A stretch of DNA of 64,000 nucleotides from an uncultured Nitrospiraceae bacterium (GCA_963705105.1 CAVPIW010000014.1:96001-160000); one strand, 5' to 3'. Shown: positions 1,351 to 59,643, counted from the first letter of the stretch. Numbers and translations: made by a program. Notes: generated by a model not told the origin, from the sequence alone.

Positions 1351-1884
1351 CCCTTCATCAGCATGAAAAGGCGGGGCGAAGCGCCATGAAACAGTAGACA
1401 ACAGACAGGAACCGGACGAAAAACGCACCGACGGGAAGGCTGATGTGGTGAAAAGCCTTTCCGCTAAGATACCTTGTTCGTCCCCTGACCACCCTTTGCC
1501 GTGTCTGTTGATATCAAAAGCCAGTCATGCAACAGGCGTTGAACACCCTGATATGCACACCCATACGCCCGACCGAATGGCGGGGTGAAGCGCCGAAAAG
1601 CATCGGTGCTGCGAAACCGCTGCCGTCCCGCTGAGTGTATGTAAGCAAAACTGTTGATGATACAGAGGATGAAATCTTCAACAACCAATAATAAATAATC
1701 ATGCTCGCTATCAGCGAGGCGTTGAGGCGCTTTGCCCCGCCTTTCGGCGCATCTGCCAAAATGGTCCTCATCATCGCATTGGAAAGGCTTTGACCCATAT
1801 CTGCATTCCCGGAGGCAGCGTCGCTATCAGCAAGGTATTGAGTTGTCTTGCCCGCTATTCCGGAGGGCTTATGCAACGATGAGG
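1351..1884. mobile_element. Degenerate MITE copy (L3 arm, element A, R1-like arm) with a second MITE (about 1555-1760, L2-R1) nested inside element A
   Basis: AAAAGGCGGGGCGAAGCGCC at the left; ATGCAACGATGAGG right end; element A (1433-1810) interrupted by about 200 bp with its own GGCGGGG/CCCCGCC arms. Confidence 0.8.
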
Positions 1885-1909
1885 TTAGGGTACACGTTGA
1901 AGCGTTGCG

Positions 1910-2827
1910 TCAGAAGGGGACAAAGAGCCGATGCTTTCTGACGAACTCTCTGAAGGTCCGGGCCGCCGCGGATAAGTCCTCATCCCTCGGGCTGACGAGG
2001 TAAATCTTTCTTTTCATCTTCCTGCCTGCGACATCCAGTATGTTGATGGATCCTTCCTTGACGGCCCTGAAGACCGACCATTTCGAAACACAGGAGATGC
2101 CCGTTCCTGCCTGCACCATCTGGACGATTAAATCGGGGCTTCCGAGCACCATGGCGACTGTTATGTCGCGGGCGTCGATTTTCATTGAGTGGAACAGCTT
2201 CTCTATATACTCTCTTGTGCCCGAGCCGGCTTCGGGCATAATGAAGGGCTGTGACAGCAACTGTGCCGGCAAGATGCCTTTTTTTTTCGCCAGCGCGTTG
2301 TCCTCAGAGGATATGATGACAATCTCATCTTCCGAAATTTCGTCGAAGACCAGTCGCGCACTCCTGCCCGCGTCCTCGACGGGTCCCTCGCATATGCCCA
2401 CCTCGATGTCCCCGCCGGTAATCTGCCGAATGATCGCATCCGTATTAGACACGGATAGTTCAATCGCCACATCAGGGTAATCTCTCGAAAAGCCATAGAG
2501 AATCTGGGGAAGGAGAAAGGAGGCGGCCGTCATGCTCGCGCTCGCGCGGAGAGTTCCCCTGAGCCGTTTGAGCAGGCCGTTGAGATCGTCCTCCATTGCG
2601 GCGTATCGGGCGAGAAGGTCCCTTGCGTGCCCGTAGAGAGCCGTTCCCGCGGGAGTCGGCCTGACGGTCTTGCCGGAACGAATGAAGAGCTTGGCGCCGA
2701 TCTCCTCTTCAAGCTTCCTGATGAGGTGGCTCATGGCGGACTGGGTCATAAACTTCTCCTCCGCAGCACGGGAAAAGCTCCCGTGTTCCACAACGAGACA
2801 GAATGCCCGCAGCCGGTGGTCTTCCAT
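1910..2827 (-). CDS. LysR-family transcriptional regulator (CysL/YeiE-like)
   Basis: GSFSRAAEEKFMTQSAMSHLIRKLEEEIG HTH; 305 aa; divergent from the tup genes. Confidence 0.9.
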   Translation of the reverse strand: MEDHRLRAFCLVVEHGSFSRAAEEKFMTQSAMSHLIRKLEEEIGAKLFIRSGKTVRPTPAGTALYGHARDLLARYAAMEDDLNGLLKRLRGTLRASASMTAASFLLPQILYGFSRDYPDVAIELSVSNTDAIIRQITGGDIEVGICEGPVEDAGRSARLVFDEISEDEIVIISSEDNALAKKKGILPAQLLSQPFIMPEAGSGTREYIEKLFHSMKIDARDITVAMVLGSPDLIVQMVQAGTGISCVSKWSVFRAVKEGSINILDVAGRKMKRKIYLVSPRDEDLSAAARTFREFVRKHRLFVPF

Positions 2828-2903
2828 TGTTCAGGCCCCTTTACACCCTCCCTCATTGTAAGGTTCATCTCCAGGCCTGTCAACAGTGCATTCAATGAGA
2901 AGA

Positions 2904-2927
2904 ATTCATGGTGAGCATGAATATAAT
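2904..2927 (+). promoter_or_regulatory. Palindromic operator ATTCATG-N5-CATGAAT overlapping a TATAAT -10 box upstream of tupA1
   Basis: Palindrome 2904-2922 and TATAAT 2922-2927 in the lysR/tup divergent region. Confidence 0.5.
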
Positions 2928-3053
2928 CCATTTGCTTTGTTCCGGGGCTGCATCATAATCTTGAAACATCGCCGTCTGATCGGCGGAGACCGGCTTCTGG
3001 CGATTCTCCGCGAATGCGGCGCCGCTGACATACATGCCACGGAGGGAATAATC

Positions 3054-3833
3054 ATGGCGGATCAAAAAACAAAACTAATCATTGCATCGACAACGAGCAC
3101 GCAAAACTCGGGGCTTTTCGACATCCTGCTTCCGGAGTACGGGAAATCGACGCGATACGGGATCGCCGTGGAAGTGGTAGCGGTCGGAACGGGGAAGGCG
3201 ATCAGGATGGCGAAGAAGGGCCTGGCGGACGTGCTCTTCGTCCATGATCCCTTCCGGGAGGAGAAGTTTGTCTCCGAAGGGTACGGGGTGAACAGGCGGG
3301 AGGTTATGCACAACGAATTCGTCATCATCGGCCCTGAAGACGATCCTGCCTCCGTCGGCGCTGCAAAATCGGCAGTCGAGGCCTTTGAGGATATCGCCGA
3401 CAAAGGAGCGTCATTTGTCTCCCGCAGTGACGACTCGGGGACGAACATACGGGAACTGGACATATGGGACGATACGGGCATCAATCCGAGGGGCAAGGGC
3501 TGGTATTTCGAGGCCGGCGCGAAGATGGGAGACACGCTGCTCATAGCGAACAACAAGCCGGCATACACACTGACAGACATGGGGACCTATCTGAACTACC
3601 AGGACAAGCTGGAGTTGCGGATCCTCTTCCGGGGCGATCCGATCCTCCGGAACCGGTACAGTGTCATAGCCGTCAGCCCCGAGAAATTCCCCGGTATAAG
3701 GTACCGCGAGGCGATGGATTTCATCGCCTTTGTGACGTCCCCGGAAGGCCAGAGGATCATAGGACAATACGCCAAAAACGGCGTGAACCTCTTTTATCCC
3801 GATGCCGTGCCATCGGTAATGAACACACAATAA
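3054..3833 (+). CDS. tupA: TupA-like tungstate-binding protein, copy 1, with no evident signal peptide
   Basis: ASTTSTQNSG, FVSRSDDSGT and YTLTDMGT motifs; RBS GGAGG before ATG 3054. Confidence 0.8.
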   Translation: MADQKTKLIIASTTSTQNSGLFDILLPEYGKSTRYGIAVEVVAVGTGKAIRMAKKGLADVLFVHDPFREEKFVSEGYGVNRREVMHNEFVIIGPEDDPASVGAAKSAVEAFEDIADKGASFVSRSDDSGTNIRELDIWDDTGINPRGKGWYFEAGAKMGDTLLIANNKPAYTLTDMGTYLNYQDKLELRILFRGDPILRNRYSVIAVSPEKFPGIRYREAMDFIAFVTSPEGQRIIGQYAKNGVNLFYPDAVPSVMNTQ

Positions 3834-3846
3834 AAAGGAACCATCA

Positions 3847-4671
3847 ATGAACAGAATCGTTATCATTATCGTTCTCGCATCCGTCATCTTCTGTTATGCT
3901 CCGGCCACATATGGCGCGCCGGCGGCGGAAATTATTCTCGCATCGACGACGAGCACGGAGAACTCGGGATTGTTCGGTCACATCCTGCCCCTCTTCGAGA
4001 AGAAGACGGGGATTAAGGTAAAGGTCGTGGCCCGGGGAACGGGCGCGTCGATCGAGATGGGCAAACGTGGTGACGCCGACGCAGTGTTCGTGCACGCAAA
4101 AGAACTTGAAATGAAGGCCGTCGAAGAGGGATTTTTCCTCAGCCGCCATGATGTGATGTACAACGATTTCGTCATCATCGCCCCGCCCGATGACCCGTCC
4201 AAAGTGAAGGGCCTGAAAAGCGCGGCGGAGGGCTTCAAGAGGATATCGGCAGGAACGGCGCCCTTCGTCTCGCGAGGGGACAAGTCAGGGACCCATACGA
4301 AGGAACTGGAGCTCTGGAAAAAGGCCGGCGTTGATCCGAAGGGAAATCCCTGGTACCTGGAAGTCGGTCAGGGCATGGAGAAGGCCCAGCGAATCGCGAA
4401 CGAGAAACGCGCCTACTGTCTCACTGACCGCGGCACATGGCTCGCGACGAAGGACAAGGACAAGCTGGAGATGATCATCGTCCTGGAGGGTGACCCCGTT
4501 CTCTTTAACCAGTACGGCGTGATGGCGGTGAATCCGGAGAAGCACAAACATGTGAAGTATAAAGAGGCGAAGGAGTTCGTGAACTGGATCATCTCGAAGG
4601 AGGGCCAGCAGGCCATAGCGTCCTTCAAGGACAAACTCGGCAACCAGCTCTTCTATCCAAATGCAAAATAG
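3847..4671 (+). CDS. tupA: Tungstate ABC transporter substrate-binding protein, copy 2, with signal peptide
   Basis: Hydrophobic N-terminus; ASTTSTENSG, FVSRGDKSGTH, LTDRGT. Confidence 0.9.
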   Translation: MNRIVIIIVLASVIFCYAPATYGAPAAEIILASTTSTENSGLFGHILPLFEKKTGIKVKVVARGTGASIEMGKRGDADAVFVHAKELEMKAVEEGFFLSRHDVMYNDFVIIAPPDDPSKVKGLKSAAEGFKRISAGTAPFVSRGDKSGTHTKELELWKKAGVDPKGNPWYLEVGQGMEKAQRIANEKRAYCLTDRGTWLATKDKDKLEMIIVLEGDPVLFNQYGVMAVNPEKHKHVKYKEAKEFVNWIISKEGQQAIASFKDKLGNQLFYPNAK

Positions 4672-4672
4672 A

Positions 4673-4936
4673 CCTTATCGTTGCATACGCCCTCCGGGAA
4701 GGCGGGGCAAAGGCGCCGAAAAGCCTCGGTGCTGCGAAACCTTTGCCTTCCCATGAAGACAGTGTCAGGCAGACGGTCGATGACACAAAGGATGGAATGG
4801 AATCGTGTAGGGGCCGTTCCCCGAACGGCCCGACATCAATAAAGCGGTCTGCTCGGGGAGCAGACCCTACAATGATCAATGTCGCGATCAGCGAGGCCTT
4901 GAGGCGCTTTGTCCCGCCTTTCCTGCAACTACGGGA
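4673..4936 (+). mobile_element. MITE copy (L2-R1) containing a REP doublet; TSD TAGA
   Basis: CCTTATCGTTGCA...TGCAACTACGGGA flanked by TAGA at 4669-4672 and 4937-4940. Confidence 0.9.
4807..4870. repeat. Inverted GTAG-type REP doublet (REPIN-like)
   Basis: GTAGGGGCCGTTCCCCGAACGGCCC facing GGTCTGCTCGGGGAGCAGACCCTAC. Confidence 0.8.
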
Positions 4937-5002
4937 TAGATTTATTTTTTTCCACGCGAAGTCGCAAAGAGCGCAAAGAAAGAACACAAAGGTGTCAGTG
5001 AC

Positions 5003-6357: not shown

Positions 6358-6542
6358 GCCGTCCGCCGCCGCAGGCACGGGAACCATCCCGGACTTGAAA
6401 TGTTTCCACAATCCATGTATATTGATAAGTCGGCAAACCGGAGGCGGGTGCCGCCCTGTCATGTCTCTGACCGCCGTTGAACAGGCTGTGCAAAGCCGGT
6501 TTCCGGAGGTCCGCGACGGGATCATACACGGAGGTTCATGAA

Positions 6543-6962: not shown

Positions 6963-7107
6963 TCTTGCCGTAAATAATCAAGAAAATGTCCCAGCCCCTA
7001 TACAGTGGGGTGTCTTTTCATATATACTAATCAGTAAGCTTTTGAAGCTTTGCGTCTCCGGGGTCATGAAAAAGCTCTGGGGATTTTTTTTTAGGAGGGT
7101 ACGGACA

Positions 7108-7452: not shown

Positions 7453-7458
7453 CCATCA

Positions 7459-10981: not shown

Positions 10982-11253
10982 CCTTATCGTTGCAATAGGT
11001 CTCCGTAAAGGCGGGGTGTATGCGCCGAAAACCTTGCTGCGGCGACACCAGTATCAAAAGGAAAGATGAACTGTAAGCCAATGGTCGATGATACAAAGAG
11101 TAGAATCCTGTAGGGGCCGTTCCCCGAACGGCCCGACATCGATGACGCTATTTCAGGCCGACGGCTGAAAAAGGTGAACTTTTTACTGACACTCACACTG
11201 TCACTGACACTGTATTTGAGGCGCTTCGCCCCGCCCTCTTATGCACTGGAAGA
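10982..11253 (+). mobile_element. MITE copy (L1, REP, R2); right end degenerate
   Basis: CCTTATCGTTGCA start; REP at about 11110-11134; ACTGAC/ACTCAC tract; CGCCCCGCC..ATGCAC end; no TSD match. Confidence 0.88.
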
Positions 11254-11858: not shown

Positions 11859-12310
11859 CAGGGCCTGACGAACAGGACGGGCACGGTGATACGCCTGAAA
11901 ACCTTCTCGGGCAGATTGACGGACTCGAAGCGCTCTCTCCAGGACTTCAGCACTTTCGATCCGAGGATGACGATGTCATAACCGCCGTCAGCGGCCACGT
12001 CCGCGATGACCTCCTCGGGGGCGCCGTGGCGCATCTCTGTCACGACGCGGACATCGCGGCGGGAGGCCTTTTCGGTGAAACGGCCAAGCGCCTCCTCGCC
12101 CTCGCGCCTGAGGGAACTTTCGAGGTGCTCCCGGCACTCATCGCGGTTGACCGCATAGATCTCGTTGGTGAATTTCTTGAGGAACGGGTCGATGACATAG
12201 AGGGCGGTGAGTCCGGCGCCGCAGCAGAGCGCGAGGGTGAGAGCATATTCCTCGGCCCTGGCGGTATGCGGTTCGCCGTCTGTGCAGAGAAGGATCTTCC
12301 GGATGTCCAT
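11858..12310 (-). CDS. Universal stress protein
   Basis: KILLCTDG, G.PEEVI, DIVILGS. Confidence 0.88.
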   Translation of the reverse strand: MDIRKILLCTDGEPHTARAEEYALTLALCCGAGLTALYVIDPFLKKFTNEIYAVNRDECREHLESSLRREGEEALGRFTEKASRRDVRVVTEMRHGAPEEVIADVAADGGYDIVILGSKVLKSWRERFESVNLPEKVFRRITVPVLFVRP

Positions 12311-12322
12311 AGTCTAATAAGA

Positions 12323-12513
12323 CCTTCCCGTTGCGTGAAAAGGCGGGACAAAGTGCCTCAAAGCCTTGCTAATAGCGAGCATGATCATTTGAAATGGGAC
12401 ATTGGGTATTTCACCCTCTGTGTCATCAACCGTCGGCCTTACATGATCCGCATGGGAAGGCAAAGGTTTCGCAGCACCAAGGCTTTTCGGCATCTTCGCC
12501 CCGCCTTTCCGGA
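12323..12513 (-). mobile_element. MITE copy (L2-R1), long end truncated
   Basis: CCTTCCCGTTGCG end; interior matches the 4673 copy without the REP doublet. Confidence 0.85.
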
Positions 12514-12532
12514 TGTCCATCACTAATAATAC

Positions 12533-18204: not shown

Positions 18205-18321
18205 TATTTATTTTATCACATCGACGAACTCGCAGAAAGCCCGCCACGGCCGCCGGCGAATCCGGTGTTTCGGGACGGTTTCTTTTAACGTCAACATGAC
18301 GTGACTGCCGCAGTCCGTCAA

Positions 18322-18383
18322 CTCTTCAGTTGCGTGGTGAAAAGGTGATTCCGCCTTTCCGGAAGACCTTTGCAGCAATAGGG
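18322..18383 (-). mobile_element. 62-bp mini-MITE; TSD TCAA
   Basis: CTCTTCAGTTGCG...CCGCCTTTCCGG...TGCAGCAATAGGG flanked by TCAA. Confidence 0.7.
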
Positions 18384-18463
18384 TCAACATGCAAATTTCC
18401 ATTGACAACTGACGAATTAGTACCTATACTCATGATATTAACAGACTCTTTGACGGAGGGACG

Positions 18464-20601
18464 ATGAACAGCGAATGGAAGACCGGTGTGTTCGTATTGT
18501 TGTGTCTCTTGTTTTCCTTGTCGCCCGCTTCTTCATCATGCGCCGACCCTCTCGACAGTTGGTATTCGAGGAACCCTCTCCCCAGAGGAAACGATCTTCG
18601 GGCCGTCGCTTACGGCAACAACACATTTGTTGCCGTCGGATGTCCCGGACCGATCCTGACGTCACCTGACGGCGTCACATGGACCATCAGGCCGACGGCT
18701 ACCGACCATTGTCTCTCCGGCGTCACTTACGGCAACAACATGTTTGTTGCAGTGGGAAGGGACAACGCAGAAGGTTATGATGTCATCCTCACATCTCACG
18801 ACGGAATCAAATGGACCCGCCGGCCCACAGGGAACCGGCATATTCTAAATGGAATCACCTATGGCAATGGTACATTCGTGGCCGTCGGTGAGGAAAACAA
18901 CGGCTTGGGTCATGTTGGCCCTGGCGTAATCATGACGTCACCCGACGGCGTCACATGGACCATCAGGTCTGATGGGGTTGCTCATGGACTCCGCGGAGTC
19001 ACTTTTGGCAATGGTGCCTTCGTGGCCGTTGGCTTGTTCTACTCGATCTTTACTTCACACGATGGTGTCATCTGGACAAGCAGATCTTCAGGATTGAGCG
19101 GAAGCAGTGAGTTTCACGATATCGCTTACGGAAACGCCACTTTTGTGGCTATAAGTGATTCGGCTATCATGACGTCGGCCGACGGCATTATCTGGACGAA
19201 GTCTCCTGGAACTAACCTCGTTACACTCCGTGGCGTCACATATGGCAACAATGGATTTGTAGCGGTGGGTGATCAGATCACGGCAGCAGCTCGCCGCGTA
19301 ATAATGACAATGACATCGACTGATGGGGTCACCTGGACCAGCCAAACCTTGGGCGATGCTGATGCTGTTGGTCTTTATATAAGTCTTTCCGCAATCACTT
19401 ACGGCAATGGCATATTCGTGGCCGTTGGACCCGGCACAATTCTGACGTCGCCTGATGGCATTTCATGGAACAACAGGTCTTTGGGGGTTGCCCCCTTGCT
19501 TAAAGGAATTACCTGCGGCAACGAACCTATTCCTGGCTGTTGGAGATTCCGGCACAATCCTCACTTCGCCCGACGGCATCAACTGGGCACTCAGACCGTC
19601 GGGAACGTCTCATCACCTGAACGCTGTGACCTATGGCAATAACCTGTTCGTGGTTGTCGGAAATTCCGGTACTATTCTGATATCGTCTAACGGCATTGAC
19701 TGGACAATTATTGCGTCTTCGGTCCCTCCTTCCCAGCCTCACGCAGTGACCTATGGGAACAACCTATTCGTAATCGTTGGAGACTTCGGTACTATTTTCA
19801 CGTCCCCTGACGGTGTCAGCTGGACCCGGAGATTGTCGGGAACGTCTCACAACCTGAATGCTGTGACACATGGCAACAACCTATTCGTGGTTGTCGGAGA
19901 TTCCGGTACTATTCTCACGTCATCCGACGGCATCAGCTGGACGACCAGATCCTCATGGGATCGCAATGCCGCTCTCCGGTGCCACTTTCGGCAACGGTCT
20001 GTTCCTCGCCATTCAAGGTGGCATAATACTGACCTCATCTGACGGCATCGTCTGGGATAGGCATTTCCCCGGCGTTTTTGGTGTAACAGCCCATCTGGAC
20101 GTGACATACGGCAGCGGCACATTTGTCGCGGTTGGTACAGAAGCGCCCTTCATGCTTCCGCACTATCAGATCTTGACCTCCACCGACGGGATTGCCTGGA
20201 CAAGCAGGGCTATCGGGGATGGCGTACTTAGCGGAATTGCGTATGGGAACGGAACATTCGTGACGGTGGGATGGAACGGCACAATTAAGCAGTCAGGTAG
20301 TCTTTGCTCCGCTACCCTTGATCCGAACCTGTCCATACATGTTCCCAATCTTATTTTCGCCGGAACTCCCTTCCGGGCCGATTTGGCCTACGTGCCGGAC
20401 ACCCTTACCTTTGACCTGGTCGATTACGGGCTCCTTACGGACACGTCGGCTTATGAAGGATGTACACCGGCTACACTGTCAGACACCTTTCTTTTGCATA
20501 TCCCAAACATCATGTTCAGAGGGGCCTCTTACCGGCTCGATCTGCAATACACTCAACAGGGGACTTCCTTCGTCTACACCAATCTGGGCGTCAATTACTG
20601 A
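18464..20601 (+). CDS. Secreted tandem-repeat (beta-propeller-like) protein split by two +1 frameshifts (about 19523 and 19956)
   Basis: Signal peptide; about 13 repeats of TYGNxxFVAVG...ILTSxDGxxW continuing across three frames; duplicated LHIPN C-terminal module. Confidence 0.75.
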
Positions 20602-20679
20602 TGTGTCAACCGTGAGTTGCATGAAAGCACAGGGCGCAGACATTGCATGCTGTTACTATTGATATCTCCAGCTGCCGCC

Positions 20680-20896
20680 GTCCACGCTCCGCTTCACGGA
20701 TATGGCCTTCGGGAGGGGCTTCTTCGTTGCCGTGAACGACGAGAAGATTTATTCGTCAACCGACGGCGTCGCGTGGTCCGAATCTCCGACACCGAACAAA
20801 CCCTGTTCTCCCGGGCCTGGCGCGCGGGTGTTTTTTGCCAACAACACGTTCATAACACTCTGCGGGCAACGCATACTCCAGTCGAACCCGCTGTAA
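20680..20896 (+). pseudogene. Relic of the same repeat-protein family
   Basis: MAFGRGFFVAV...IYSSTDGVAW...ILQSNPL with no clear start. Confidence 0.45.
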
Positions 20897-20997: not shown

Positions 20998-21273
20998 CCC
21001 TGTCGTTGCATAGAAGGGCGGGGCGAAACGCTCTGAAATATAGTGTCAGTGACAGTGTGAGTGTCAGCAAAAAGTTCACCTTTTTCAGCCGTCGGCCTGA
21101 AATAGCTTCATCGATGTCGGGCCGTTCGGGGAACGGTCCCTACAGGATTCCACTCCTTGCGTGATCGACCATTGGCTTGAAAGGCTGTCTTCTGTGAGGG
21201 TTACGGTGTCGCCGCAGCAAGGTTTTCGGCGCATACGCCCCGCCCTTCCCGGGAGTGTATTGCAGCGATAAGA
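20998..21273 (-). mobile_element. MITE copy (L1, REP, R2); TSD GTAA
   Basis: CCCTGTCGTTGCA / TGCAGCGATAAGA ends flanked by GTAA. Confidence 0.9.
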
Positions 21274-26608: not shown

Positions 26609-26620
26609 TTCCCAAAGAAA

Positions 26621-26901
26621 CCTTATCGTTGCAATACACTCCCGGGAAAGGCGGGGCTGGGGTGAATGCGCCGAAAACCTTGCTGCGGCGACACCTATAT
26701 CAAAACGACAGATGAACTATACGCCAATGGTCGATGACACAAAGAGTGGAATCCTGTAGGGGCCGTTCCCCGAACGGCCCGACATCGATGAAGCTATTTC
26801 AGGCCGACGGCTGAAAGAGGTGAACTTTTTGCTGACACTCACACTGTCACTGACACTGTATTTCAGAGCGCTTCGCCCCGCCTTTTTATGCAACTGAAAG
26901 G
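26621..26901 (+). mobile_element. MITE copy (L1, REP, R2); TSD GAAA
   Basis: CCTTATCGTTGCA / TGCAACTGAAAGG flanked by GAAA. Confidence 0.92.
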
Positions 26902-27039
26902 GAAAGATTCCGGACAAGCCGAAGGACATTACGATCGCATCTTTCAATATATCTCCGGAGTCATTGGTGTGGCCGGCAACCGACAGCCGTGGAATAAAGC
27001 ATCGGGTCGACGATCGCCTGTCCACAATCCGGGAGGACC

Positions 27040-27666
27040 TTACGGGCACGGTCCCGGGGCATGACCGGCATTGTAAACGATACCCCCCGCCTCGACATAT
27101 GCGCGGAGCACTGAAACGGCTTCATCGCGAAGCACGTCGCGGACGACATCGATCCGCCGCGATCTGAGTTCCGCAGCCCAGTCGTGCAGTTTCGGTCCCT
27201 CGTCGAATCCTATTGCCCTTGCATCCTCGTCCCTGGCCCCGCAGATGAGACGGCTCACGCCCGCCCATGGGATAGCGCCGAAGCACATGGCGCAGGGTTC
27301 CGCCGAGGAGACGAGGTCAAACCGGAGACTGCCGCCGTCCCCGATGTCGTACCGGCCCAGTATCTTCTGGGCAAGGGACAGGGCGATGATCTCGGCATGA
27401 AGGATGGAGCAGTTCGATGACACGACGAGGTTCACACCCGGCGCAATGAGCCGACCCTCGCTATCGAACACCCCGGCACCGAAGGGCCCTCCCGTTCCCC
27501 GCTCAACGTTATGCCGGGCCATGTCGATGACGAGGCGCATGCGGTCCTCGACGGCCGGAAATACAGGGCTGCACGTGGACAGGAACTCCCCCATCCATCC
27601 CGGCAGCCCTATGCTTACCGTCGGGAAAGACACCATTCTTTTCATCGGTATACCATACTTGTCCAA
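27040..27666 (-). CDS. Nucleoside/guanine deaminase family protein (start uncertain)
   Basis: GGPFGA, HAE, EPCAMC. Confidence 0.88.
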   Translation of the reverse strand: MDKYGIPMKRMVSFPTVSIGLPGWMGEFLSTCSPVFPAVEDRMRLVIDMARHNVERGTGGPFGAGVFDSEGRLIAPGVNLVVSSNCSILHAEIIALSLAQKILGRYDIGDGGSLRFDLVSSAEPCAMCFGAIPWAGVSRLICGARDEDARAIGFDEGPKLHDWAAELRSRRIDVVRDVLRDEAVSVLRAYVEAGGIVYNAGHAPGPCP

Positions 27667-27973
27667 AATAGCTTACAGCCAGACCTTGTAAACGAGGATA
27701 GGGTGTGGTTTCTGAAGCATAATTCACGGTTGCCTTGCACGAAAAGACGGTGCAAAACGCTCTAAAAACAGTGTCAGTGTCAGTGTGAGTGTCCGTAAAA
27801 GGTTAATTTTGTTTGATCGTTGGTCTGCAATGGTCTGTACGGGAAGGCAGAGGTTTCGCAGCACCGATGCTTTTCGGCGCATTCGCCCCGTCTTTCCTGA
27901 GATCTCATTGCGGTGATAAGGGTTTAGTATGCGAAGGAATCATGCCCTATCCTCGATTCACATTATTTTGGAC
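27660..27973. mobile_element. Palindromic element E carrying one MITE (27727-27921, L2-R2, minus orientation)
   Basis: GTCCAAAATA..CGAGGATAGGG / CCCTATCCTCG..TATTTTGGAC arms; near-identical to the corresponding parts of 47167-47698. Confidence 0.8.
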
Positions 27974-27987
27974 GCCGAAACATGCCG

Positions 27988-39397: not shown

Positions 39398-39605
39398 CCT
39401 TGAAATTGCATGGAAAGGCGGTGCGAAACGCCTCAAAGCCTTGCTGAAGGCGACGATGATCATTGTCAGGTTCGTCTCTCAGGGTCCCATTCTTCGTGTC
39501 ACCGACCATCGCTTGTAACGTCTTCCGCGACGATACAGGTGTCGCCGCATCAAGGTTTTCGGCGCATACACCCCGCCTTTCCAGAGGACGCATGCAACGA
39601 TAGTG
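39398..39605 (-). mobile_element. MITE copy (L1-R1); TSD ACAA/ACAG
   Basis: CCTTGAAATTGCA / TGCAACGATAGTG ends; long internal inverted repeat. Confidence 0.88.
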
Positions 39606-41971: not shown

Positions 41972-42820
41972 ATGGAGATAAGCCGGATTGCGGTGATCGG
42001 ATCGGGGACCATGGGAGGCGGCATCGCCCAGGTTGCATCGCAGAGCGGGTACGAGGTCATCTTGAGCGATGTGAGCGATGATTTCGTTCGGAAGGGTTTC
42101 GCCCGCATCCGGGAGCGGCTTGAACAGAGGGTGAATCAGGGAAAGTTTAAAGCCGCCGAGGCGGAGAAGGCCCTCTCCCGCATCAGACCCGTCGGCCGTC
42201 TCGAGGAGTGCGGAGAGGCCGATCTTGTAATCGAGGCCGTCGTCGAACGGGAGGAGACGAAGAGGGATATCTTCCGGCAGCTCGATGCCCTCTGTCCGGA
42301 CCGGACGATCTTTACATCCAACACCTCGTCATTGTCCATCACCCGCCTGAGCCAGACATTCAGGCGGCCGGAACGCTTCGCGGGCATGCACTTCATGAAC
42401 CCTGCCTTTGTCATGCCTCTCCTGGAGGTCGTCCGGGGACATCGTACGTCGGGGGAGACAATTGCAGCGATAACCCGTGTGGGTGAGAGCATGGGGAAAA
42501 AGGTCGTCGTCGTCGAGGACTCGCCGGGCTTCGTGACGAGCCGCGTACTGCTGCACATGATCAACGATGCCGTATTCTGTCTGCACGAGGGGGTGGCGTC
42601 GCGTGAAGCCATCGACACCGTCATGAGGCTCGGAGCGCACCACCCCATGGGACCCCTGGAACTTGCGGATTTCATGGGCCTTGACATCTGCCTCGCCATC
42701 CTCGGAGTCCTCCATGCCGAGCTGGGTGAAAAATACAGGCCCTGCCTGCTCCTGCGGCGGATGGTTGAGGCAGGTAAGCTCGGCAGGAAAAGCGGGGAAG
42801 GGTTCTATGAGTACCGGTGA
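41972..42820 (+). CDS. hbd: 3-hydroxybutyryl-CoA dehydrogenase
   Basis: GSGTMGGGIA, SNTSSLSIT, GMHFMNP, HPMGPL. Confidence 0.92.
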   Translation: MEISRIAVIGSGTMGGGIAQVASQSGYEVILSDVSDDFVRKGFARIRERLEQRVNQGKFKAAEAEKALSRIRPVGRLEECGEADLVIEAVVEREETKRDIFRQLDALCPDRTIFTSNTSSLSITRLSQTFRRPERFAGMHFMNPAFVMPLLEVVRGHRTSGETIAAITRVGESMGKKVVVVEDSPGFVTSRVLLHMINDAVFCLHEGVASREAIDTVMRLGAHHPMGPLELADFMGLDICLAILGVLHAELGEKYRPCLLLRRMVEAGKLGRKSGEGFYEYR

Positions 42821-43580
42821 GTCTATCATGGTCGAAAGACAGGGGCCCGTCTGCACGATCACCTTGAACAGGGACAGGGGGATGAACCTGCTCGGCACGG
42901 AGTCGCTCCAGATGCTGTCTCATACCTTCGCAACGGCGGCGGAAGACCGGCAGGTGCGTGCCGTTGTCATCACGGGGCGCGGAAACTTCAGCGCCGGTGC
43001 CGATATCAGGGAAATGAAGGACATGAGCGTGGAGCAGGCCGGTGCCTTCGCACGCCTCGGTCAGGGCGTGTTCAACATGATCGAACGCATGGATAAGGCG
43101 GTCATAGCGGCCGTCACCGGATACGCCCTCGGGGGAGGATGTGAGCTTGCCCTCGCCTGCGACATCCGCATATGCGACGAGAGCGCGCGGTTCGGCCAGA
43201 TCGAGCTGAGCCTCGGTCTCATTCCCGGTTTCGGCGGAACACAGCGACTCGCCAGGATTGTGGGCCATGGCAGGGCCATGGAAATGATGCTGACGGGACG
43301 CATGGTCGGAGCACAGGAGGCAGGATCTATCGGCCTTGTCGGCACGGTGGTCCCCCTGGGGGATGCGCTGAAGGCAGCCATGGAAATCGCGCAGACGATC
43401 GCGGGGAAAAGCCCCGTCGGCGTGGCCATGGTCAAGAGAATCGCAAGAGAATCCTCTCCGCTCGAGAAGGGGCTGGCAATCGAGGCCGAGTCATTCATGA
43501 AGTGCTTCGGATACGAGGACCACAGGGAAGGCATCCGTGCATTTCTCGAAAAGAGACCGCCCGTCTTCAGGGGGGAGTAA
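42807..43580 (+). CDS. crt: Enoyl-CoA hydratase (crotonase)
   Basis: FSAGADI, ALGGGCELA, GQIE..LGLIPGFGGTQRL. Confidence 0.9.
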   Translation: MSTGESIMVERQGPVCTITLNRDRGMNLLGTESLQMLSHTFATAAEDRQVRAVVITGRGNFSAGADIREMKDMSVEQAGAFARLGQGVFNMIERMDKAVIAAVTGYALGGGCELALACDIRICDESARFGQIELSLGLIPGFGGTQRLARIVGHGRAMEMMLTGRMVGAQEAGSIGLVGTVVPLGDALKAAMEIAQTIAGKSPVGVAMVKRIARESSPLEKGLAIEAESFMKCFGYEDHREGIRAFLEKRPPVFRGE

Positions 43581-43581: not shown

Positions 43582-43901
43582 GCTTATCGTCATAGGAAAG
43601 TAGGGGCGAAGCGCCTAAAAGCCTTCTCATTGCAACGCTGACTCCGGGAAGGCAGATACGGTCAAGGCCTTTCCAATGCGATGATGAGACTTCTCCGGCG
43701 TTAAGCGCCGGTTGCCTGACGGGCTCTTGTCATCGGACGACACGGCAAAGGGTGGTCTGGTGATGTATAGGGTATCTTAGCGGAAAGGCTTTTACCACAT
43801 CAGCCTTCCCGTCGGTGTGTTTATCGTCCGGTTTCCGTCTTTGCCTGCTGTCTATTGTCGCCTTCGCCCCGCCTTTTCGGACGGCGTAGTCAACGATGAG
43901 G
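43582..43901 (-). mobile_element. MITE copy (L3, element A 43646-43810, R1-like); TSD TAAA/TGAA
   Basis: GCTTATCGTCATA / GTCAACGATGAGG ends. Confidence 0.82.
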
Positions 43902-44915: not shown

Positions 44916-45018
44916 GTGAGCAGGCTCTCCTTCCTCTTCGTATAGGCTTCCATCATACCTTATCGGGGCGGTTGTCCACAATAATAGCGCCTCTGTCAGA
45001 ATATCCGTGGACCACCCC

Positions 45019-45135
45019 TGTCCGAAATATCTTGCAGCGAGACCTTGAAAGCGAGGATTGGGTGTGCACGTGAGAAGAGGGAGTTTATTTTGCGAAGAAA
45101 GCATGCCCAACCCTCGTGTCATGTTATTTTGGACA
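45019..45135. repeat. Palindromic element E with no MITE insert
   Basis: TGTCCGAAATA..CGAGGATTGGG / CCCAACCCTCG..TATTTTGGACA. Confidence 0.75.
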
Positions 45136-45279
45136 CCAATGTCCATGGGCCCATCCTCCTGTCGGTTGCACACTTCGGTCAGGGCGAAGCGTCTCAAAGA
45201 AATGCCTCAATGACCTGATGACGTCCATTGAGGCATCTTCGCTCCGTCTTTCCGAAGGCGATGCGTGGAGATGTTCTGT

Positions 45280-47112: not shown

Positions 47113-47166
47113 CATCCACCTCCTGAGGAATTCCACTATTCTTATTCTTCTATATCTTACCACCCC

Positions 47167-47698
47167 TGTCCAAAATATTTTGCAGCCGGACTTTGAAAAC
47201 GAGGATAGGGTGTGGTTTCTGAAGCAAAATTCACGGTTGCCTTGTACGAAAAGACGGTGCAAAACGCTCCGAAAAACAGTGTCAGTGTCAGTGTGAGTGT
47301 CCGTAAAAGGTTAATTTTGTTTGATCGTTGGTCTGCAATGGTCTGTACGGGAAGGCAGAGGTTTCGCAGCACCGATGCTTTTCGGCGCATTCGCCCGGTC
47401 TTTCCTGAGATCTCATTGCAGTGATAAGGGTTTACCTTATCGTTGCAATGCGCGCCCGGGAAAGGCGGGGCGTATGCGCCGAAAACCTTGCTGCGGCGAC
47501 ACCTGTATCAAAACGAAAGATGAATTATACGCTAATGGTCGATGACACAAAGAGTGAAATCCTGAAACACGAAGATGACGAGGCGTATCGTCGCCTTCAG
47601 CAAGGCTTTGAGGCGTTTCGCCCCGCCTTTCAATGAAACTATAGGGTTTATTTTGCGAAGAAAACATGCCCTATCCTCGTATTGCGTTATTTTGGACA
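47167..47698. mobile_element. Element E carrying two MITEs: 47234-47429 (L2-R2) and 47435-47646 (L1-R1, TSD TTTA)
   Basis: TTTA at 47431-47434 and 47647-47650; single TTTA at the equivalent site of the 27660 copy. Confidence 0.9.
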
Positions 47699-47764
47699 CC
47701 TGGATCTTACATCACTCCCGTCCGCTATAACTTGCAGGCAATCCTTTCGAACGATGTCGCACGT

Positions 47765-50072: not shown

Positions 50073-50261
50073 CCGTATCGTTGCATAGGCCCGACAGAAA
50101 GGCGGGGTGTAGGCGTCGAAAACCTTGATGCGGCGACACCATAAACGTCACAGAAGATAAGGTTTCAAGCTGATGTCTGAAAAAGTGATCCCTTTACTGA
50201 CACTCACACTGTCACTGACACTGTCTTTCAGAGGCGCTTCGCCCCGCATCTTCACGCAAGG
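50073..50261 (+). mobile_element. MITE copy (L1-R2); TSD TTTA
   Basis: CCGTATCGTTGCA start; shortened right end; flanked by TTTA. Confidence 0.85.
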
Positions 50262-53530: not shown

Positions 53531-53726
53531 CCTTATCGTTGCAATACACTCCCGGGAAAGGCGGGGCGTATGCGCCGAAAACCTTGCTGCGGCGACTCCG
53601 TAACCCTCACAGAAGACGACCTTTCAAGCCTATGGTCGAAAAAGTGAGCTTTATTACTGACACTCACACTGACACGGACACTGTTTTTCAGAGCGCTTCG
53701 CCCCGCCTTTCAATGCAACGACAACA
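53531..53726 (+). mobile_element. MITE copy (L1-R2); TSD TTGA
   Basis: CCTTATCGTTGCA / TGCAACGACAACA flanked by TTGA. Confidence 0.92.
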
Positions 53727-53730
53727 TTGA

Positions 53731-53746
53731 TGTTCCACGTGGAACA
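53731..53746. promoter_or_regulatory. parS site
   Basis: TGTTCCACGTGGAACA perfect palindrome matching the chromosomal parS consensus. Confidence 0.85.
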
Positions 53747-53957
53747 TCAAAGGACCGCACCCACCAGGCATGTATCGAATCGATTTCTCATCCTTACGTT
53801 CTTTGCGATTTTGCGTGAGACTGAAGGCGCTGCTTTGTGATTCATTCCTAAATGCGCTGCAGAAAAGTTTTTCCTCTGCCCGCCGATAATGTATATAAAC
53901 CTTAACGTTATCGCAGTCAGAACAAAGAGAAGCAACCCTGCTCGGAGGAAGTTTTTC

Positions 53958-55649: not shown

Positions 55650-55673
55650 TCCGGCACAGCCTTGCTCTGAACC

Positions 55674-58289
55674 ATGACACCGCCCCCCCTTTTCAGGGTC
55701 ATCCTTCGCCACTCCCTCCTCCTCTTCCTGGGAGCGGCGATGATCCTCTCTCTGGAGTATGTCGGGATGTTCGAGGGGGCGGACAATTACCTCCACGATC
55801 TCTCCTTCCGGGTGAGAGGCACCGTCGTCGCCAATGACAACATCATCATTGTCGCCATAGACGAGCAGACGCTTGAAAAACTCGGCAGGTGGCCTCTCAA
55901 CAGAAGACATTATGCCACGCTGTTGGATCGCACGAGGGAAGCCAGAGTCGTCGCGTTCGATATAATCATGGCCGAACCGACAGGGGATGACATCATTTTC
56001 GAAGAGGCGATGCGGGGCCACGGACATGTGGTCCTGCCGGCACATCTCGACGACGGGCTCGGCTTCCGTAATCCTGCCGGTACCCTGGCTTCTTACAGGG
56101 CGGGCCATGTCCATGTCGAGCAGGGCGTTGACGGTGTCGTCCGGAAGGTGTTTCACCGGCTTAAAAGCGGCAGCGCCTCTCTGCCCTCCTTCTCGCTGGC
56201 GATTCTCGAAACAGTGGACGGAAGCGCACCGGCAACGGAACGTCCACAGGCGAGCCCTTCCTCCGGACATCCTGCCGTTGTGCAGGACGAGGCCATGCAT
56301 ATCAATTTCTACGGTCCCGAGGGAACGTTCCGTACTGTCTCATTTGCCGATGTCATCGATGGAACATACCGTTCCGCCCTGTTTCGCGGCAAGATCGTTT
56401 TCGTCGGCGTGACGGCTGCAGGGCTGGAAGACAAGGTTCTCACGCCATTCACCCAGAACAGAGACCGCATGTCCGGCGTTGAAGTCCATGCTACCTGTCT
56501 CAGCAATCTGCTGCATCAGGACTTCACCCGTGTCCTGCCGGACCGGCTTCGGCTTGTCACTGCCTTGTTTCTCTCCGCCGGAGCCCTCTTTCTCTTCATA
56601 CGACTTGACGAGAAGAGGGCCGTCGCACTGTTGATGGCCGGTCTCGCGACAGTGACTTTCCTGACATTCTTCCTTTTCTCATCGCCGGGCATTTGGGCGA
56701 ACCCGTCTTTGCTGTTTGCGTCTTTTTCCTTCATGTTTCTCGTCGCCTACATCGTGCGGATCGAGAGGGTCGGCCAGTTGCTTTTCTTCGCAAGGGCCGA
56801 ATGGGAGGCAACGTTCAATGACATCAGCGACGCCATCGTCGTCCACGACAGGGACTTCACGATCATCCGCGCCAACAGGGCGGCAGTCCCGTTCATTGAG
56901 GGTGCGCAAAGTGAGACCTGGAAAGCGCGGTTCCGCGGGTTTGGCGGCGGATACCGGGATTCGGCCGATGAAAAGCACCTGCGTCAGGCGAAACCTGCGT
57001 CGGTTGAGGTCTTTGAACCGTCACTCGGCAGATTTCTTGAGATAACGACGATCCCGAGGCTCGACGAACATCACCGGTTCGCAGGCATGATACACCTGAT
57101 CAGGGATGTAACGGAACGGATAGAGGCCGAAAATCAGATACGCACTCATCTGGAGCGACTCCGAGTTCTCCGCACCATCGATCACGCGATCACATCGAGT
57201 CTCGACCTGCAGGTGACACTCAATGTGCTTCTCCACGAGGTCGTCTCCCATCTCCACGTCGACGCCGCTGTCGTGTTGCTCTGCGGGGCCGATGGGGGCT
57301 CACCGGAATTCGCAGCCGGCAGGAGTAGAAACGGCACCATGATGCCGGAGCGGAAAGAGATGACTGCAAATGGACTGTCCCGGGAAGTGGTGCGGTCGAT
57401 GAAGCCACTTGTCATACCCGACCTCGGCGGCAACGCCCCGGCATCTTTCCGCGCCGCCCGAGCAGGAGACTTCCGCGCCTATTTCGGCATGCCCCTCGTC
57501 GTCAAGAGTCAGCTCAGGGGTGTCCTGGAGCTGTATCACCGCACCCCCTTCGATCCCGATGCATCCTGGGTAGATTTTCTCGCAGCGCTGACGGGCCAGG
57601 CAGCGATAGCCATCGACAATGCGCTGATGTTCAAAGACCTCCAGCTCTCACGCGAAGAAATCGTCAAAGCGTACGACGCCACCATCGAGGGATGGTCACG
57701 GGCGATGGATGTCAGGGACAGCGATACGGAGGGACATTCCAGAAGGGTAGCGGATATGACGGTTGCACTGGGCAGGGCGATGTCCGTCCCCGAGGACCAG
57801 CTCGTTCATTACCGGCGCGGCGCCCTCCTCCATGACATCGGAAAGCTCGGTGTTCCCGACAGCATTTTGAGGAAAGAGGGGCCGCTCACCGACGAAGAGA
57901 GGGAACTCATGAAAGCACATCCCGTCATCTCTTATGAAATGCTGTCTCCGATTGCTTTCCTGAGACCAGCCCTCGATATCCCGCATTGTCACCATGAGCG
58001 ATGGGACGGCAAGGGTTATCCGAGGGGCCTGAAGGGTTGTGAAATCCCGCTTTCGGCAAGGATATTCGCCGTTGTGGATATCTGGGACGCCATCTGCTCC
58101 GAGCGGCCGTATAGTCCTGCCTGGTCCAGAGAGCAGGCACTGGCTCACATTCACTCCCTCTCGGGCAGTCACCTCGATGCTTCGGTGGTTGCGGTTTTTC
58201 TGAAGATGCAGGACGATGACAGCCGGGCGCCGGAACATTCAGCTCGGGCGGCTCACGACGACATCGTTCATCCTGCCGGGATTACATGA
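55674..58289 (+). CDS. CHASE2-PAS-GAF-HD-GYP cyclic di-GMP phosphodiesterase
   Basis: IVAIDEQTL..LGRWP, DGVVR, MSGVEVHA, LHDIGK, HHERWDGKGYP. Confidence 0.92.
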   Translation: MTPPPLFRVILRHSLLLFLGAAMILSLEYVGMFEGADNYLHDLSFRVRGTVVANDNIIIVAIDEQTLEKLGRWPLNRRHYATLLDRTREARVVAFDIIMAEPTGDDIIFEEAMRGHGHVVLPAHLDDGLGFRNPAGTLASYRAGHVHVEQGVDGVVRKVFHRLKSGSASLPSFSLAILETVDGSAPATERPQASPSSGHPAVVQDEAMHINFYGPEGTFRTVSFADVIDGTYRSALFRGKIVFVGVTAAGLEDKVLTPFTQNRDRMSGVEVHATCLSNLLHQDFTRVLPDRLRLVTALFLSAGALFLFIRLDEKRAVALLMAGLATVTFLTFFLFSSPGIWANPSLLFASFSFMFLVAYIVRIERVGQLLFFARAEWEATFNDISDAIVVHDRDFTIIRANRAAVPFIEGAQSETWKARFRGFGGGYRDSADEKHLRQAKPASVEVFEPSLGRFLEITTIPRLDEHHRFAGMIHLIRDVTERIEAENQIRTHLERLRVLRTIDHAITSSLDLQVTLNVLLHEVVSHLHVDAAVVLLCGADGGSPEFAAGRSRNGTMMPERKEMTANGLSREVVRSMKPLVIPDLGGNAPASFRAARAGDFRAYFGMPLVVKSQLRGVLELYHRTPFDPDASWVDFLAALTGQAAIAIDNALMFKDLQLSREEIVKAYDATIEGWSRAMDVRDSDTEGHSRRVADMTVALGRAMSVPEDQLVHYRRGALLHDIGKLGVPDSILRKEGPLTDEERELMKAHPVISYEMLSPIAFLRPALDIPHCHHERWDGKGYPRGLKGCEIPLSARIFAVVDIWDAICSERPYSPAWSREQALAHIHSLSGSHLDASVVAVFLKMQDDDSRAPEHSARAAHDDIVHPAGIT

Positions 58290-58306
58290 CGGGCTGAGGA
58301 TGAAAA

Positions 58307-58322
58307 TGTTCCACGTGGAACA
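58307..58322. promoter_or_regulatory. parS site
   Basis: TGTTCCACGTGGAACA. Confidence 0.85.
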
Positions 58323-58358
58323 TCCATCCCCCAAAGCGGACAGTCCATGATGAATCAA

Positions 58359-58724
58359 CCTTATCGTTGCATACGCTTTCCGGAAAGGCGGGGCGTATGC
58401 GCCACTGAACAGTAGACAATAGGCAGTAATCAGTAGTCGGAAAAAGGCCGCGACCAACTGACGGGGAGGCTGATGTGGTGAAAAACCTTTCCGCTAAGAT
58501 ACCTTATCTGTCCCAGATCACCCTTTGCCGTGTCTGTCGATACCAAATGCCCGTGAGGCAACGGGCATTGAACGCCTTGAGATGTCTCATCATCGCATTG
58601 GAAAGGCTTTGAACCATATCTGCCTTCCCGGAGGAAGCAGTAGTGACACCGACACTGACACTCACACTGTCACTGACACTGTATTTCAGAGCGCTTCGCC
58701 CCGCCTTTTCATGCAACGACAGGG
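58359..58724 (+). mobile_element. MITE copy (L3, element A 58463-58629, R2); TSD TCAA
   Basis: CCTTATCGTTGCA / TGCAACGACAGGG flanked by TCAA. Confidence 0.93.
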
Positions 58725-58972
58725 TCAAGTGCCGAGTTGATGAAGTTGAATGGGTTGAAGAATCTGACTGAGGTGAATACCGACGCTGTCATGAACACTA
58801 TTTACAATAGATTGACTCCATGCACTCACATCATTACGAAAACAGACGCTGCCGCTTTTCTTTGCGCTCTTTGCGGTTCAGCGCGAGACGGCCTTGAGAT
58901 ATTTTCCTTTCACCGGCATGACCATTGTTGTGCCGAGGCGGTTCGTGCATTCTTCCATATAAAAAGTGATGC

Positions 58973-59056
58973 CTAATTCATGAAAGCGATAGCGAAGGAC
59001 GCCATGGCACCGATGAAACACACTGCACTGAGCGAGTATGAAATGATGGTTTTCAT
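58973..59056 (-). CDS. 27-aa hydrophobic peptide
   Basis: RBS AGAGGAGG; MKTIISYSLSAVCFIGAMASFAIAFMN; upstream sigma54 motif. Confidence 0.6.
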   Translation of the reverse strand: MKTIISYSLSAVCFIGAMASFAIAFMN

Positions 59057-59119
59057 TGTGTCCTCCTCTTTGTCGGCCCGTTGTCCATGCCCATCGTCAT
59101 GGCTGATGTCATCAATAAA

Positions 59120-59135
59120 TGCAATGACGATGCCA
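59120..59135 (-). promoter_or_regulatory. Sigma54 -24/-12 promoter
   Basis: TGGCATCGTCATTGCA on the minus strand. Confidence 0.7.
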
Positions 59136-59276
59136 CCTTTTATCTCTTTGATTTTATTGTGTTTCAAGATTGGCCTTTTGGTATGGATTCGCCGATACTA
59201 TGGAATATTTCCATAGAGCATGGGTTTGCACCCCCTGTCATGGGCAAGTTTCTTGGCTATCCTTCACGTGAATAAA

Positions 59277-59643
59277 CCTTATCGTTGCATAGGCTTTCCG
59301 GAAAGGCGGGGCGTATGCGCCACTGAACAGTAGACAATAGGCAGTAATCAGTAGTCGGAAAAAGGCCGCGACCAACTGATGGGGAGGCTGATGTGGTGAA
59401 AAACCTTTCCGCTAAGATACCTTATCTGTCCCCAGACCACCCTTTGCCGTGTCTGTCGATACCAAATGCCCGTGAGGCAACGGGCATTGAACGCCTTGAG
59501 ATGTCTCATCATCGCATTGGAAAGGCTTTGAACCATATCTGCCTTCCCGGAGGAAGCAGTAGTGACACCGACACTGACACTCACACTGTCACTGACACTG
59601 TATTTCAGAGCGCTTCGCCCCGCCTTTTCATGCAACTGGAAGG
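59277..59643 (+). mobile_element. MITE copy (L3, element A 59381-59548, R2); TSD TAAA
   Basis: CCTTATCGTTGCA / TGCAACTGGAAGG flanked by TAAA; nearly identical to the 58359 copy. Confidence 0.93.

Follow-up and report, generated by a model that had tools for sequence, protein, structure and literature searches.

The window analyzed here is a 64,000-nt stretch of an uncultured Nitrospiraceae bacterium (GCA_963705105.1 CAVPIW010000014.1:96001-160000), and genome-wide figures refer to the single 4.23-Mb assembly, in 19 contigs. [quoted passage not shown] A preliminary description had listed 15 copies in the window, with three left and two right arms in all six combinations, and had seen in them a recombining, modular population. 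Reading the listed copies confirmed that they are modular and that all six combinations are present: L1-R1 (39398, 47435), L1-R2 (10982, 20998, 26621, 50073, 53531), L2-R1 (4673, 12323, and an inner copy at ~1556), L2-R2 (27727, 47234), L3-R1 (1351, 43582), and L3-R2 (58359, 59277). The motifs named for the arms are found in the window nine (R2), seven (L1), five (L2), and six (R1) times, against 0-0.01 matches expected from shuffles. The L3 word CAGTAGACAA occurs at 1392, 58410, and 59328, although this 10-mer alone is not beyond chance (22 of 100 shuffles reached three matches), and the arms of 43582 have diverged so that neither search pattern matches. Extended to the whole genome, the analysis makes it probable that this family became mosaic through homology-dependent exchange of blocks, deletion, and nested insertion, and that the resulting hybrids were amplified by transposition.

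Ends, target sites, and mobility

The left end of the elements consists of CCTTATCGTTGCA, a spacer of 15-16 nt, and GGAAAGGCGGGG. The right end is the inverted partner of the left one, shorter, with a spacer of 6 nt, and it is the less constant of the two; in short, the asymmetric inverted repeats can be written CCTTATCGTTGCA...GGCGGGG. The asymmetry between both spacers is constant across all classes, so that the orientation of an element is well defined. Paired elements are small (median of 220 bp, with classes of up to ~380-640 bp) and have no transposase gene inside; the long open reading frames (ORFs) that start in copies are either host genes or read-through from an inner block, the A module. 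Among the 101 elements with both termini recognized, to which the count was limited, 62 have a perfect 4-bp duplication (mean of 7.3 and maximum of 19 with shuffled flanks), and none has a duplication of 5, 6, or 8 bp. The target site consensus is T-W-W-A.

Mobility is shown by three insertions in the window. In a contig of sequencing run X4, from another metagenome, 26612 is followed by GAA and then directly by 26902, which is a precise empty site of 26621 with a single GAAA. Element 12323 is missing from the contigs of runs X2 and X3, which skip 12297-12506 with a junction that is ambiguous over 14 nt. Two other copies of the small repeat Z, described below, have a paralogous empty site each, at about 27919 and 45080, and these fix the exact ends of 47435. 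The family has the traits that characterize MITEs, namely, terminal inverted repeats in all element classes, a target duplication of fixed length, small size without a transposase gene, and presence/absence polymorphism at exact insertion sites. By every structural test, the elements are true MITEs.

Insertions are intergenic and often lie right at stop codons. In three cases (window positions 1348-1350, 4669-4671, and 43578-43580), the stop codon of the upstream ORF falls in the duplicated tetranucleotide (TTGA, TAGA, and TAAA, respectively). The four possible orientations with respect to the flanking genes are represented by 69, 68, 58, and 47 of 242 elements, without bias. A search of Rfam gave no match at the gathering score or at an E value of ≤1, and the promoter and terminator scan found no excess of promoter-like or terminator-like sites in the elements. 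Folding is stronger than in shuffled sequences (z scores of -4.7 and -4.2): element 47435 folds as a single long hairpin, and in 53531 only the terminal repeats pair.

Arm types and inner blocks

We could orient and type 297 of the 355 paired elements, and the other 58, with an unclassified arm or no recognizable core, were excluded (Table 1). The single L2-R1a element proved on inspection to be a full L2-R1b copy adjoining a truncated L1-R1a copy, which leaves 10 real combinations of the 12 possible, built from at least four left and at least three right types. The three left and two right arms of the preliminary description hold for the copies in the window and are too few as a total. Moreover, only 35 of the 96 near-full copies of the A module are within the paired set, so the true diversity of arms exceeds that of Table 1.

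Table 1. Typed elements by left arm (rows) and right arm (columns).
Left arm	R1a	R1b	R2
L1	122	0	96
L2	1	35	9
L3	3	5	7
L4	1	4	14

The inverted-repeat partner of L1 is R1a, and that of L2 is R1b. Elements L1-R1a and L2-R1b are homologous end to end, and each folds as one long hairpin. R2, L3, and L4 are arrays of units of 6-8 nt (CAGTG, GTAGACA, AGTCATT) that replace one strand of the L1-R1a or L2-R1b stem. The possibility that L3-R1 is the reverse complement of L1-R2, leaving two end types only, was ruled out by the spacers of 15-16 nt on the left and 6 nt on the right; considering that their lengths are constant over the classes, L3 and L4 are true left arms.

Between the arms we found the blocks M1, X-box, and M2, an optional hairpin (H), and the A module of ~190 bp, with conserved boxes between the blocks. 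Several ORFs of 286-381 codons without a Pfam match start by read-through of the A module (C9:59293-60435, C9:340031-341158, and C6:768541-769398) and could be misannotated as a multicopy protein family. Since copies at gene ends create such spurious long ORFs, recognizing the family makes the genome's annotation better.

The H hairpin is a G+C-rich sequence of 21 nt, GGGCCGTTC CCC GAACGGCCC, with conserved flanks (in the window at 4795-4845, 11098-11148, and 26744-26794). It is a separate small unit, present at 80 loci genome-wide, both within MITEs and in other contexts, and it looks like a repetitive extragenic palindromic (REP) sequence. The genome contains four Y1_Tnp genes (C5:264943, C7:292773, C5:339860, and C6:957998), which may relate to this nested hairpin and not to the elements as a whole.

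Probable exchange of blocks between copies

A tree without exchange or repeated origin permits at most 4 + 3 - 1 = 6 arm combinations, and we found 10. The M1 block is the clearest example. Between its haplotypes, v1 and v2, 12-14 of 25 nt are different, and both are found with each class of right end (v1/v2 counts of 65/45 with R1a, 12/6 with long R2, and 16/19 with short R2, with a further 55 copies being ambiguous), in proportions consistent with independence of haplotype and class (chi-square of 2.70, df = 2, P = 0.26). The short R2 form could recur by deletion, yet all four combinations of v1 and v2 with R1a and long R2 are present, and hence deletion is insufficient as an explanation. 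Within L1-R1a, v1/v2 is strongly associated only with its own block, with a weaker association at a few sites near M2/M3a (V of 0.4-0.8) and a slight one with the terminal repeats. Common variants of the left 100 nt occur at similar frequencies in L1-R1a and L1-R2; their Cramer's V with the right class is 0.01-0.40, mostly <0.3, and climbs to 0.5-0.77 beside the junction.

Linkage between variable sites also decays with distance. Using all sites, the mean r2 in L1-R1a is 0.167 for pairs 1-5 nt apart and 0.026 for pairs >100 nt apart; the corresponding values in the short R2 cluster are 0.146 and 0.024. When CpG transitions are left out and only pairs ≥15 nt apart are used, the mean falls from 0.130 (15-30 nt) to 0.027 (>100 nt) and from 0.125 to 0.023, respectively. 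The compatibility of neighboring sites beats all permutations of site order (0 of 1000). Since CpG sites are possibly hypermutable, single-site four-gamete counts are weak evidence on their own, and we relied on the block haplotypes and the CpG-free decay. Taken together, the 10 combinations against a maximum of 6, the assortment of M1, and the decay of linkage support exchange between copies.

Hybrid elements whose termini were found often have perfect duplications of their own (31 of 61 L1-R2, 3 of 5 L3-R2, 2 of 4 L3-R1b, and 4 of 9 L4-R2), which indicates that they moved as hybrids. It had been proposed that most hybrids in the window retain an intact duplication; by eye, a perfect one is present in 8 of the 15 copies (4673, 20998, 26621, 47435, 50073, 53531, 58359, and 59277), so that "most" barely holds. 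Element 20998 had been singled out as a hybrid. Alignment supports its composition, a left interior of the 53531 type with the long right interior of 10982 and 26621, but it could just as well be an ancestor of the short form that has not undergone the deletion.

Other variation comes from deletion and nesting. The alignment shows that short L1-R2 is long L1-R2 minus the stretch between two X-boxes, and a nested inner element recurs at one and the same place in two composites (1351 and C7:320022-320661). Considering these together with the H hairpin and the carriage of elements inside repeat Z, some of the "modules" are nested insertions or deletion products rather than exchanged cassettes. 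The suggested reading as a recombining, modular population is therefore supported in part: given the arm combinations, the M1 haplotypes, and the linkage decay, purely clonal subfamilies do not account for the copies, yet clonal structure is strong as well.

In the mechanism that we propose, a transposase supplied in trans would move the elements to T-W-W-A sites with a 4-bp duplication. Homology-dependent exchange, with the conserved boxes as its sites, would re-assort the blocks through ectopic gene conversion or through template switching in repair or replication, while deletion between internal direct repeats, such as from X-box to X-box, would convert long L1-R2 to the short form. Nested insertion of small repeats would account for the H hairpin, the inner element, and the carriage inside repeat Z, and hybrids would then be multiplied by ordinary transposition. 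The ends, the duplication, the empty site, the copy numbers, the re-assortment of blocks, and the decay of linkage are direct observations; how exchange proceeds at the molecular level and which transposase moves the elements are inferred.

Abundance and distribution

A profile of the ends gave 1,012 matches at an E value of <0.1 in the whole genome, resolved into 355 inward-facing pairs and 302 unpaired ends. BLAST with seven window copies as queries detected 771 loci covering 148,889 bp, or 3.5% of the 4.23-Mb genome; about this fraction of the genome consists, then, of one small-repeat family that annotation pipelines would leave unnamed. Decayed, truncated, and micro copies are numerous. 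Pairs of copies <10 kb apart have an average identity of 82.8%, versus 80.9% for the others, and this effect of proximity is not significant (P = 0.086).

Roughly 14 studies contain this organism. In 40 related genomes, no copy of the family as an element was found, and 4 of them gave weak matches to the CAGTG-repeat part alone. Exact matches to the end pattern number 158 in this genome (0 for a reversed-pattern control) and 0 in 400 other genomes of the phylum. A loose pattern gave 25 single matches from unrelated taxa in a wider scan of genome contigs, which we took as chance. In the metagenome scan, only one contig was detected. It belongs to a relative, has 92.5% identity over 1,171 bp, and contains a canonical L1-R1a copy. 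At the orthologous site in our genome (C5:551100-551480), the left part is as in the relative, followed by a variant hairpin, truncated and without a right end.

Search for a parent transposase

We searched this assembly for an autonomous element with these ends by way of solo end pairs, transposase families, and ORFs beside solo ends, and found none; mobilization in trans is therefore what we infer. An autonomous relative is usual for MITEs and is not required, since orphan MITEs are known. Solo end pairs ≤6 kb apart share only pieces of MITEs, and the candidates were an ISL3 element inserted into a MITE and a host gene with an HD domain. The DDE_Tnp_1 elements have different ends, the 150 words that resemble a terminus but lack the GGCGGGG core are chance matches or micro-derivatives, and the ORFs adjoining solo ends are host genes or A-module read-through. 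The termini starting with CC (CCTTATCG...) and the 4-bp duplication would fit the IS1380 family, whose termini begin with CC and which makes a 4-5-bp duplication. The best match to the IS1380-type transposase model NF033539 in the assembly scored 20.7 bits, against a cutoff of 180, and the matches lie in an unrelated insertion sequence (IS) of 1953 bp with other ends.

This IS (565-amino-acid DDE_Tnp_1 transposase, four full copies and one partial, 3-bp duplication) is itself inserted in an R2 arm, and another MITE copy contains an ISL3-family element; these insertions are at C10:240800-243141 and C6:856577-858251.

Alternative explanations

Several observations weigh against a mosaic origin by exchange. 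L1-R1b is found in 0 of the 297 typed elements and there is no real L2-R1a (Fisher P = 9e-36 with curated counts). The nearest neighbor is ≥97% identical for 32 of 122 L1-R1a and 14 of 35 L2-R1b elements, against 0 of 96 L1-R2: the two palindromic classes underwent recent bursts, and the R2-bearing classes are therefore older. The right arm of L1-R1a is slightly differentiated by M1 type (between minus within of 0.0069, 0 of 1000 permutations). CpG transitions, possibly recurrent, are found at 15 of the 76 informative sites of L1-R1a and at 15 of the 100 of the short-R2 cluster, and for linkage decay the P values are computed as if site pairs were independent. Diversity is near equal within and between classes (Fst-like values of 0.05-0.12, significant but tiny), which a star-like burst would also give, so we did not count this comparison as evidence. 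Hybrid junctions rest on one assembly, and the Logan contigs of four runs break at every copy. That L1-R1b and L2-R1a are missing could be due to insufficient homology between the centers of the two subfamilies or to selection for matched arms.

Much of this would be expected if these were ordinary clonal MITE subfamilies, each architecture having arisen once, through deletion, insertion, or nested transposition, and been copied without exchange, with shared polymorphisms due to recurrent mutation. Four classes account for 262 of the 297 typed elements, the pairing of L1 and L2 with their own R1 is absolute, and the near-identical bursts are recent; the short form, being a simple X-box deletion, could have recurred, 20998 could be an ancestral form instead of a hybrid, and the CpG transitions are among the common variants. 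Nevertheless, we regard a purely clonal history as improbable and already strained, since recurrent point mutation or deletion cannot place two haplotypes as different as v1 and v2 with both R1a and long R2, a tree accommodates only 6 of the 10 arm combinations, and the decay of linkage remains after the CpG sites are removed. It is very improbable that the hybrids are instead assembly chimeras, in which halves of different copies were joined within the repeat. The assembly seems to derive from an environmental sample, copies have exact stretches of up to ~45 nt in common, and no contig of the four runs bridges a hybrid. However, each major architecture is found at many loci, which differ in their flanks and private substitutions and often have a 4-bp duplication of their own; despite the 771 repeat loci, the assembly consists of only 19 contigs; and the elements are about 200-380 bp long with unique flanks. 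Besides, the independent metagenome contig holds a canonical L1-R1a element, and the empty site in run X4 removes exactly the whole of 26621.

A different origin for the hybrids would be a transposase that sometimes uses an alternative or neighboring right end, so that a left end is mobilized with a foreign right part later shrunk by deletion. The asymmetry of the ends, with the left one more constant, the joining of R2 to four different left arms, and the existence of composites of 301-640 bp with an outer left and an outer right end (one with TGAA on both sides) all agree with it. Misrecognition of ends, with use of alternative right ends, is on record for the IS1380 family (ISPme1, ISEcp1; PMC9330008). 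We give this explanation little credence: no IS1380-type transposase in the assembly reaches the cutoff (20.7 versus 180 bits), and the re-assortment of M1 and the linkage decay within a single architecture are left unexplained. The assignment to IS1380 is itself tentative. Even less credible is that the modules are functional RNA or protein-binding cassettes combined by the host for regulation instead of selfish DNA. Folding far beyond shuffles, the three arm types made of 6-8-nt arrays that could bind protein, and the many copies directly after stop codons could be taken that way, but any long inverted repeat folds strongly, there is no bias of orientation with respect to genes, and neither an Rfam match at an E value of ≤1 nor an excess of promoters or terminators was found. 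The family was also not found in the 40 relatives or the 400 genomes of the phylum, and many of its copies are decayed, truncated, or micro copies.

A bolder version of the mosaic reading, which we consider unlikely, would see the ~450 copies as freely recombining non-coding parasites, with blocks 30-60 nt apart near linkage equilibrium. Exchange would then be coupled to transposition (by template switching in gap repair or copying, or through the ends of neighboring copies), and the CAGTG, GTAGACA, and AGTCATT arms would act as alternative binding arrays tuning mobilization. If true, an uncultured bacterium would provide, in this family, a natural system in which ectopic exchange and the selection among selfish elements could be measured.

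Relation to known repeats

The preliminary description had named the elements as its best candidate for an undescribed system. This part is not supported: the elements are structurally ordinary MITEs, and modular interspersed repeats have already been described (PMC3049150, PMC3184786). The BOX elements found in Streptococcus pneumoniae and S. suis are likewise small, interspersed, and built from modules, and they have terminal inverted repeats and target duplications (Croucher et al. 2011, PMC3049150). In S. suis, BOX has alternative end modules (boxA/C or boxE/F) around one inner module, with an optional boxD; the elements vary in size between strains and insert into one another. Variation in BOX is mainly in the number of tandem boxB copies, whereas here we find alternative non-tandem blocks with re-assortment and linkage decay. 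The resemblance is in modular organization only, and no sequence relationship is expected.

The Correia elements of Neisseria (Correia repeat enclosed elements, CREE, or Neisseria miniature insertion sequences, NEMIS) are similarly a high-copy bacterial MITE with recognized subtypes (PMC10969869) and have sizes of about 104-157 bp (PMC3184786). Our elements do not belong to this family, differing in the 4-bp T-W-W-A duplication, the unrelated ends, and the lack of a promoter excess. Correia elements have TA flanks or duplication and a 26-bp terminal repeat; they also contain promoters and a site for integration host factor (IHF), to which we saw nothing similar here. Their subtypes are reportedly combinations of two variants per end, with or without an internal deletion, work that is said to go back to Liu et al. 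in 2002 and Siddique et al. in 2011. These end-variant subtypes are the nearest published analogue of our left type by right type scheme.

Eukaryotic chimeric non-autonomous DNA transposons arise by abortive gap repair or template switching, with mosaic interiors, fixed ends, and short-homology junctions. They share with our family the mosaic interior between fixed ends and differ in being eukaryotic. Bacterial interspersed mosaic elements (BIMEs) are also comparable in being intergenic mosaics of a few motif types in varied combinations, with hundreds of copies (PMC3333891, PMC3184786). However, REP sequences, of which BIMEs are composed, are short G+C-rich palindromes linked to Y1 REP-associated tyrosine transposases (RAYTs) and without target duplication, unlike the long terminal repeats and 4-bp duplication found here. 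The elements are thus outside the REP/BIME group, and only the nested H hairpin has a REP-like appearance. The treatment of the copies of a short repeat in one genome as an evolving population has a precedent in the REP doublets forming hairpins (REPINs; Bertels and Rainey 2011, PMC3116915), although REPINs are REP doublets moved by RAYTs, another type of element, and the abstract does not mention modules being exchanged between copies.

In our literature search, we found no report of MITEs in this phylum (Nitrospirae), nor of exchange between bacterial MITE copies. We consider the elements to be a new family of MITEs whose mosaic history is unusually legible. It varies what is known from other bacterial repeat families and is not a new kind of system. 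Its interest is that copies of a bacterial MITE can be seen with unusual clarity to exchange inner blocks, while the matched arms of the two palindromic subfamilies never cross. This offers a handle on the homology needed for ectopic exchange and on whether the pairing of arms matters for mobility.

Copies in the window

The copies in the window, together with the empty reference copy of repeat Z, are listed in Table 2. Element 1351 is a composite whose own right arm is a degenerate R1 at 1821-1845, with three mismatches; the R1 at 1705 belongs to the nested element and not to the outer one.

Table 2. MITE copies and repeat Z in the window.
Feature	Position	Strand	Description
Long element	1351..1884	+	Left end, L3 (GTAGACA-type short repeats), A module, nested element, A-right, degenerate R1b-like arm, right end; flanks TTGA / TTAG; adjoins stop codon of ORF 862-1350
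Nested L2-R1b-type element	1556..1766	+	Outer termini degenerate; within A module of 1351; defined by uninterrupted copies 58359 and 59277
L2-R1b element with extra H hairpin block	4673..4936	+	Duplication TAGA, holds stop codon of ORF 3847-4671
L1-R2 long form	10982..11253	+	M1 v1, X-box, M2, H hairpin, second X-box, R2; without perfect duplication
L2-R1b element	12323..12529	-	Left terminus degenerate
L1-R2 long form, M1 haplotype v2	20998..21273	-	Duplication TTAC
L1-R2 long form	26621..26901	+	Duplication GAAA at 26617-26620 and 26902-26905
L2-R2 element	27727..27922	-	Within repeat Z copy (27652-27976); 99% identical to 47234
L1-R1a element, long-hairpin type	39398..39603	-	Left terminus truncated
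A-class element, diverged L3-like and R1-like arms	43582..43901	-	Flanks TAAA / TGAA; adjoins stop codon of ORF 42663-43580
Repeat Z, uninterrupted copy	45011..45137		Empty paralogous reference for insertions in 27652-27976 and 47159-47700
L2-R2 element	47234..47430	-	Within repeat Z copy (47159-47700); duplicate of 27727
L1-R1a element	47435..47646	+	Duplication TTTA
L1-R2 short form	50073..50261	+	Duplication TTTA
L1-R2 short form, M1 v2	53531..53726	+	Duplication TTGA
L3-A-R2 element	58359..58724	+	Duplication TCAA
L3-A-R2 element	59277..59643	+	Duplication TAAA; 97-99% identical to 58359, 919 bp away
Micro-derivative	60320..60375	+	Left terminal repeat fused directly to right terminus; TTCA on both sides

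Repeat Z is a second small inverted-repeat element of ~125 bp, with ends like GGTGTCCAAAATA, and two of its three copies hold nested MITEs. It seems to have taken an L2-R2 element along when it transposed: considering that 27727 and 47234 are 99% identical and both inside Z, they represent one hitchhiked duplicate and not two events. Micro-derivatives of ~45-60 bp like the one at the end of the series are also found genome-wide (C11:63951, C2:53827, C9:282078, and others), some of them with a 4-bp duplication.

Apart from the MITEs, the window has seven copies of a coding repeat of ~47 nt (18594-20016), spaced by 117-355 nt, in the ORFs 18464-19642 and 19455-20042. The region 18313-20716 is almost wholly without contig cover in runs X2-X4 while its flanks are covered, which suggests that the repeat protein may be strain-variable.

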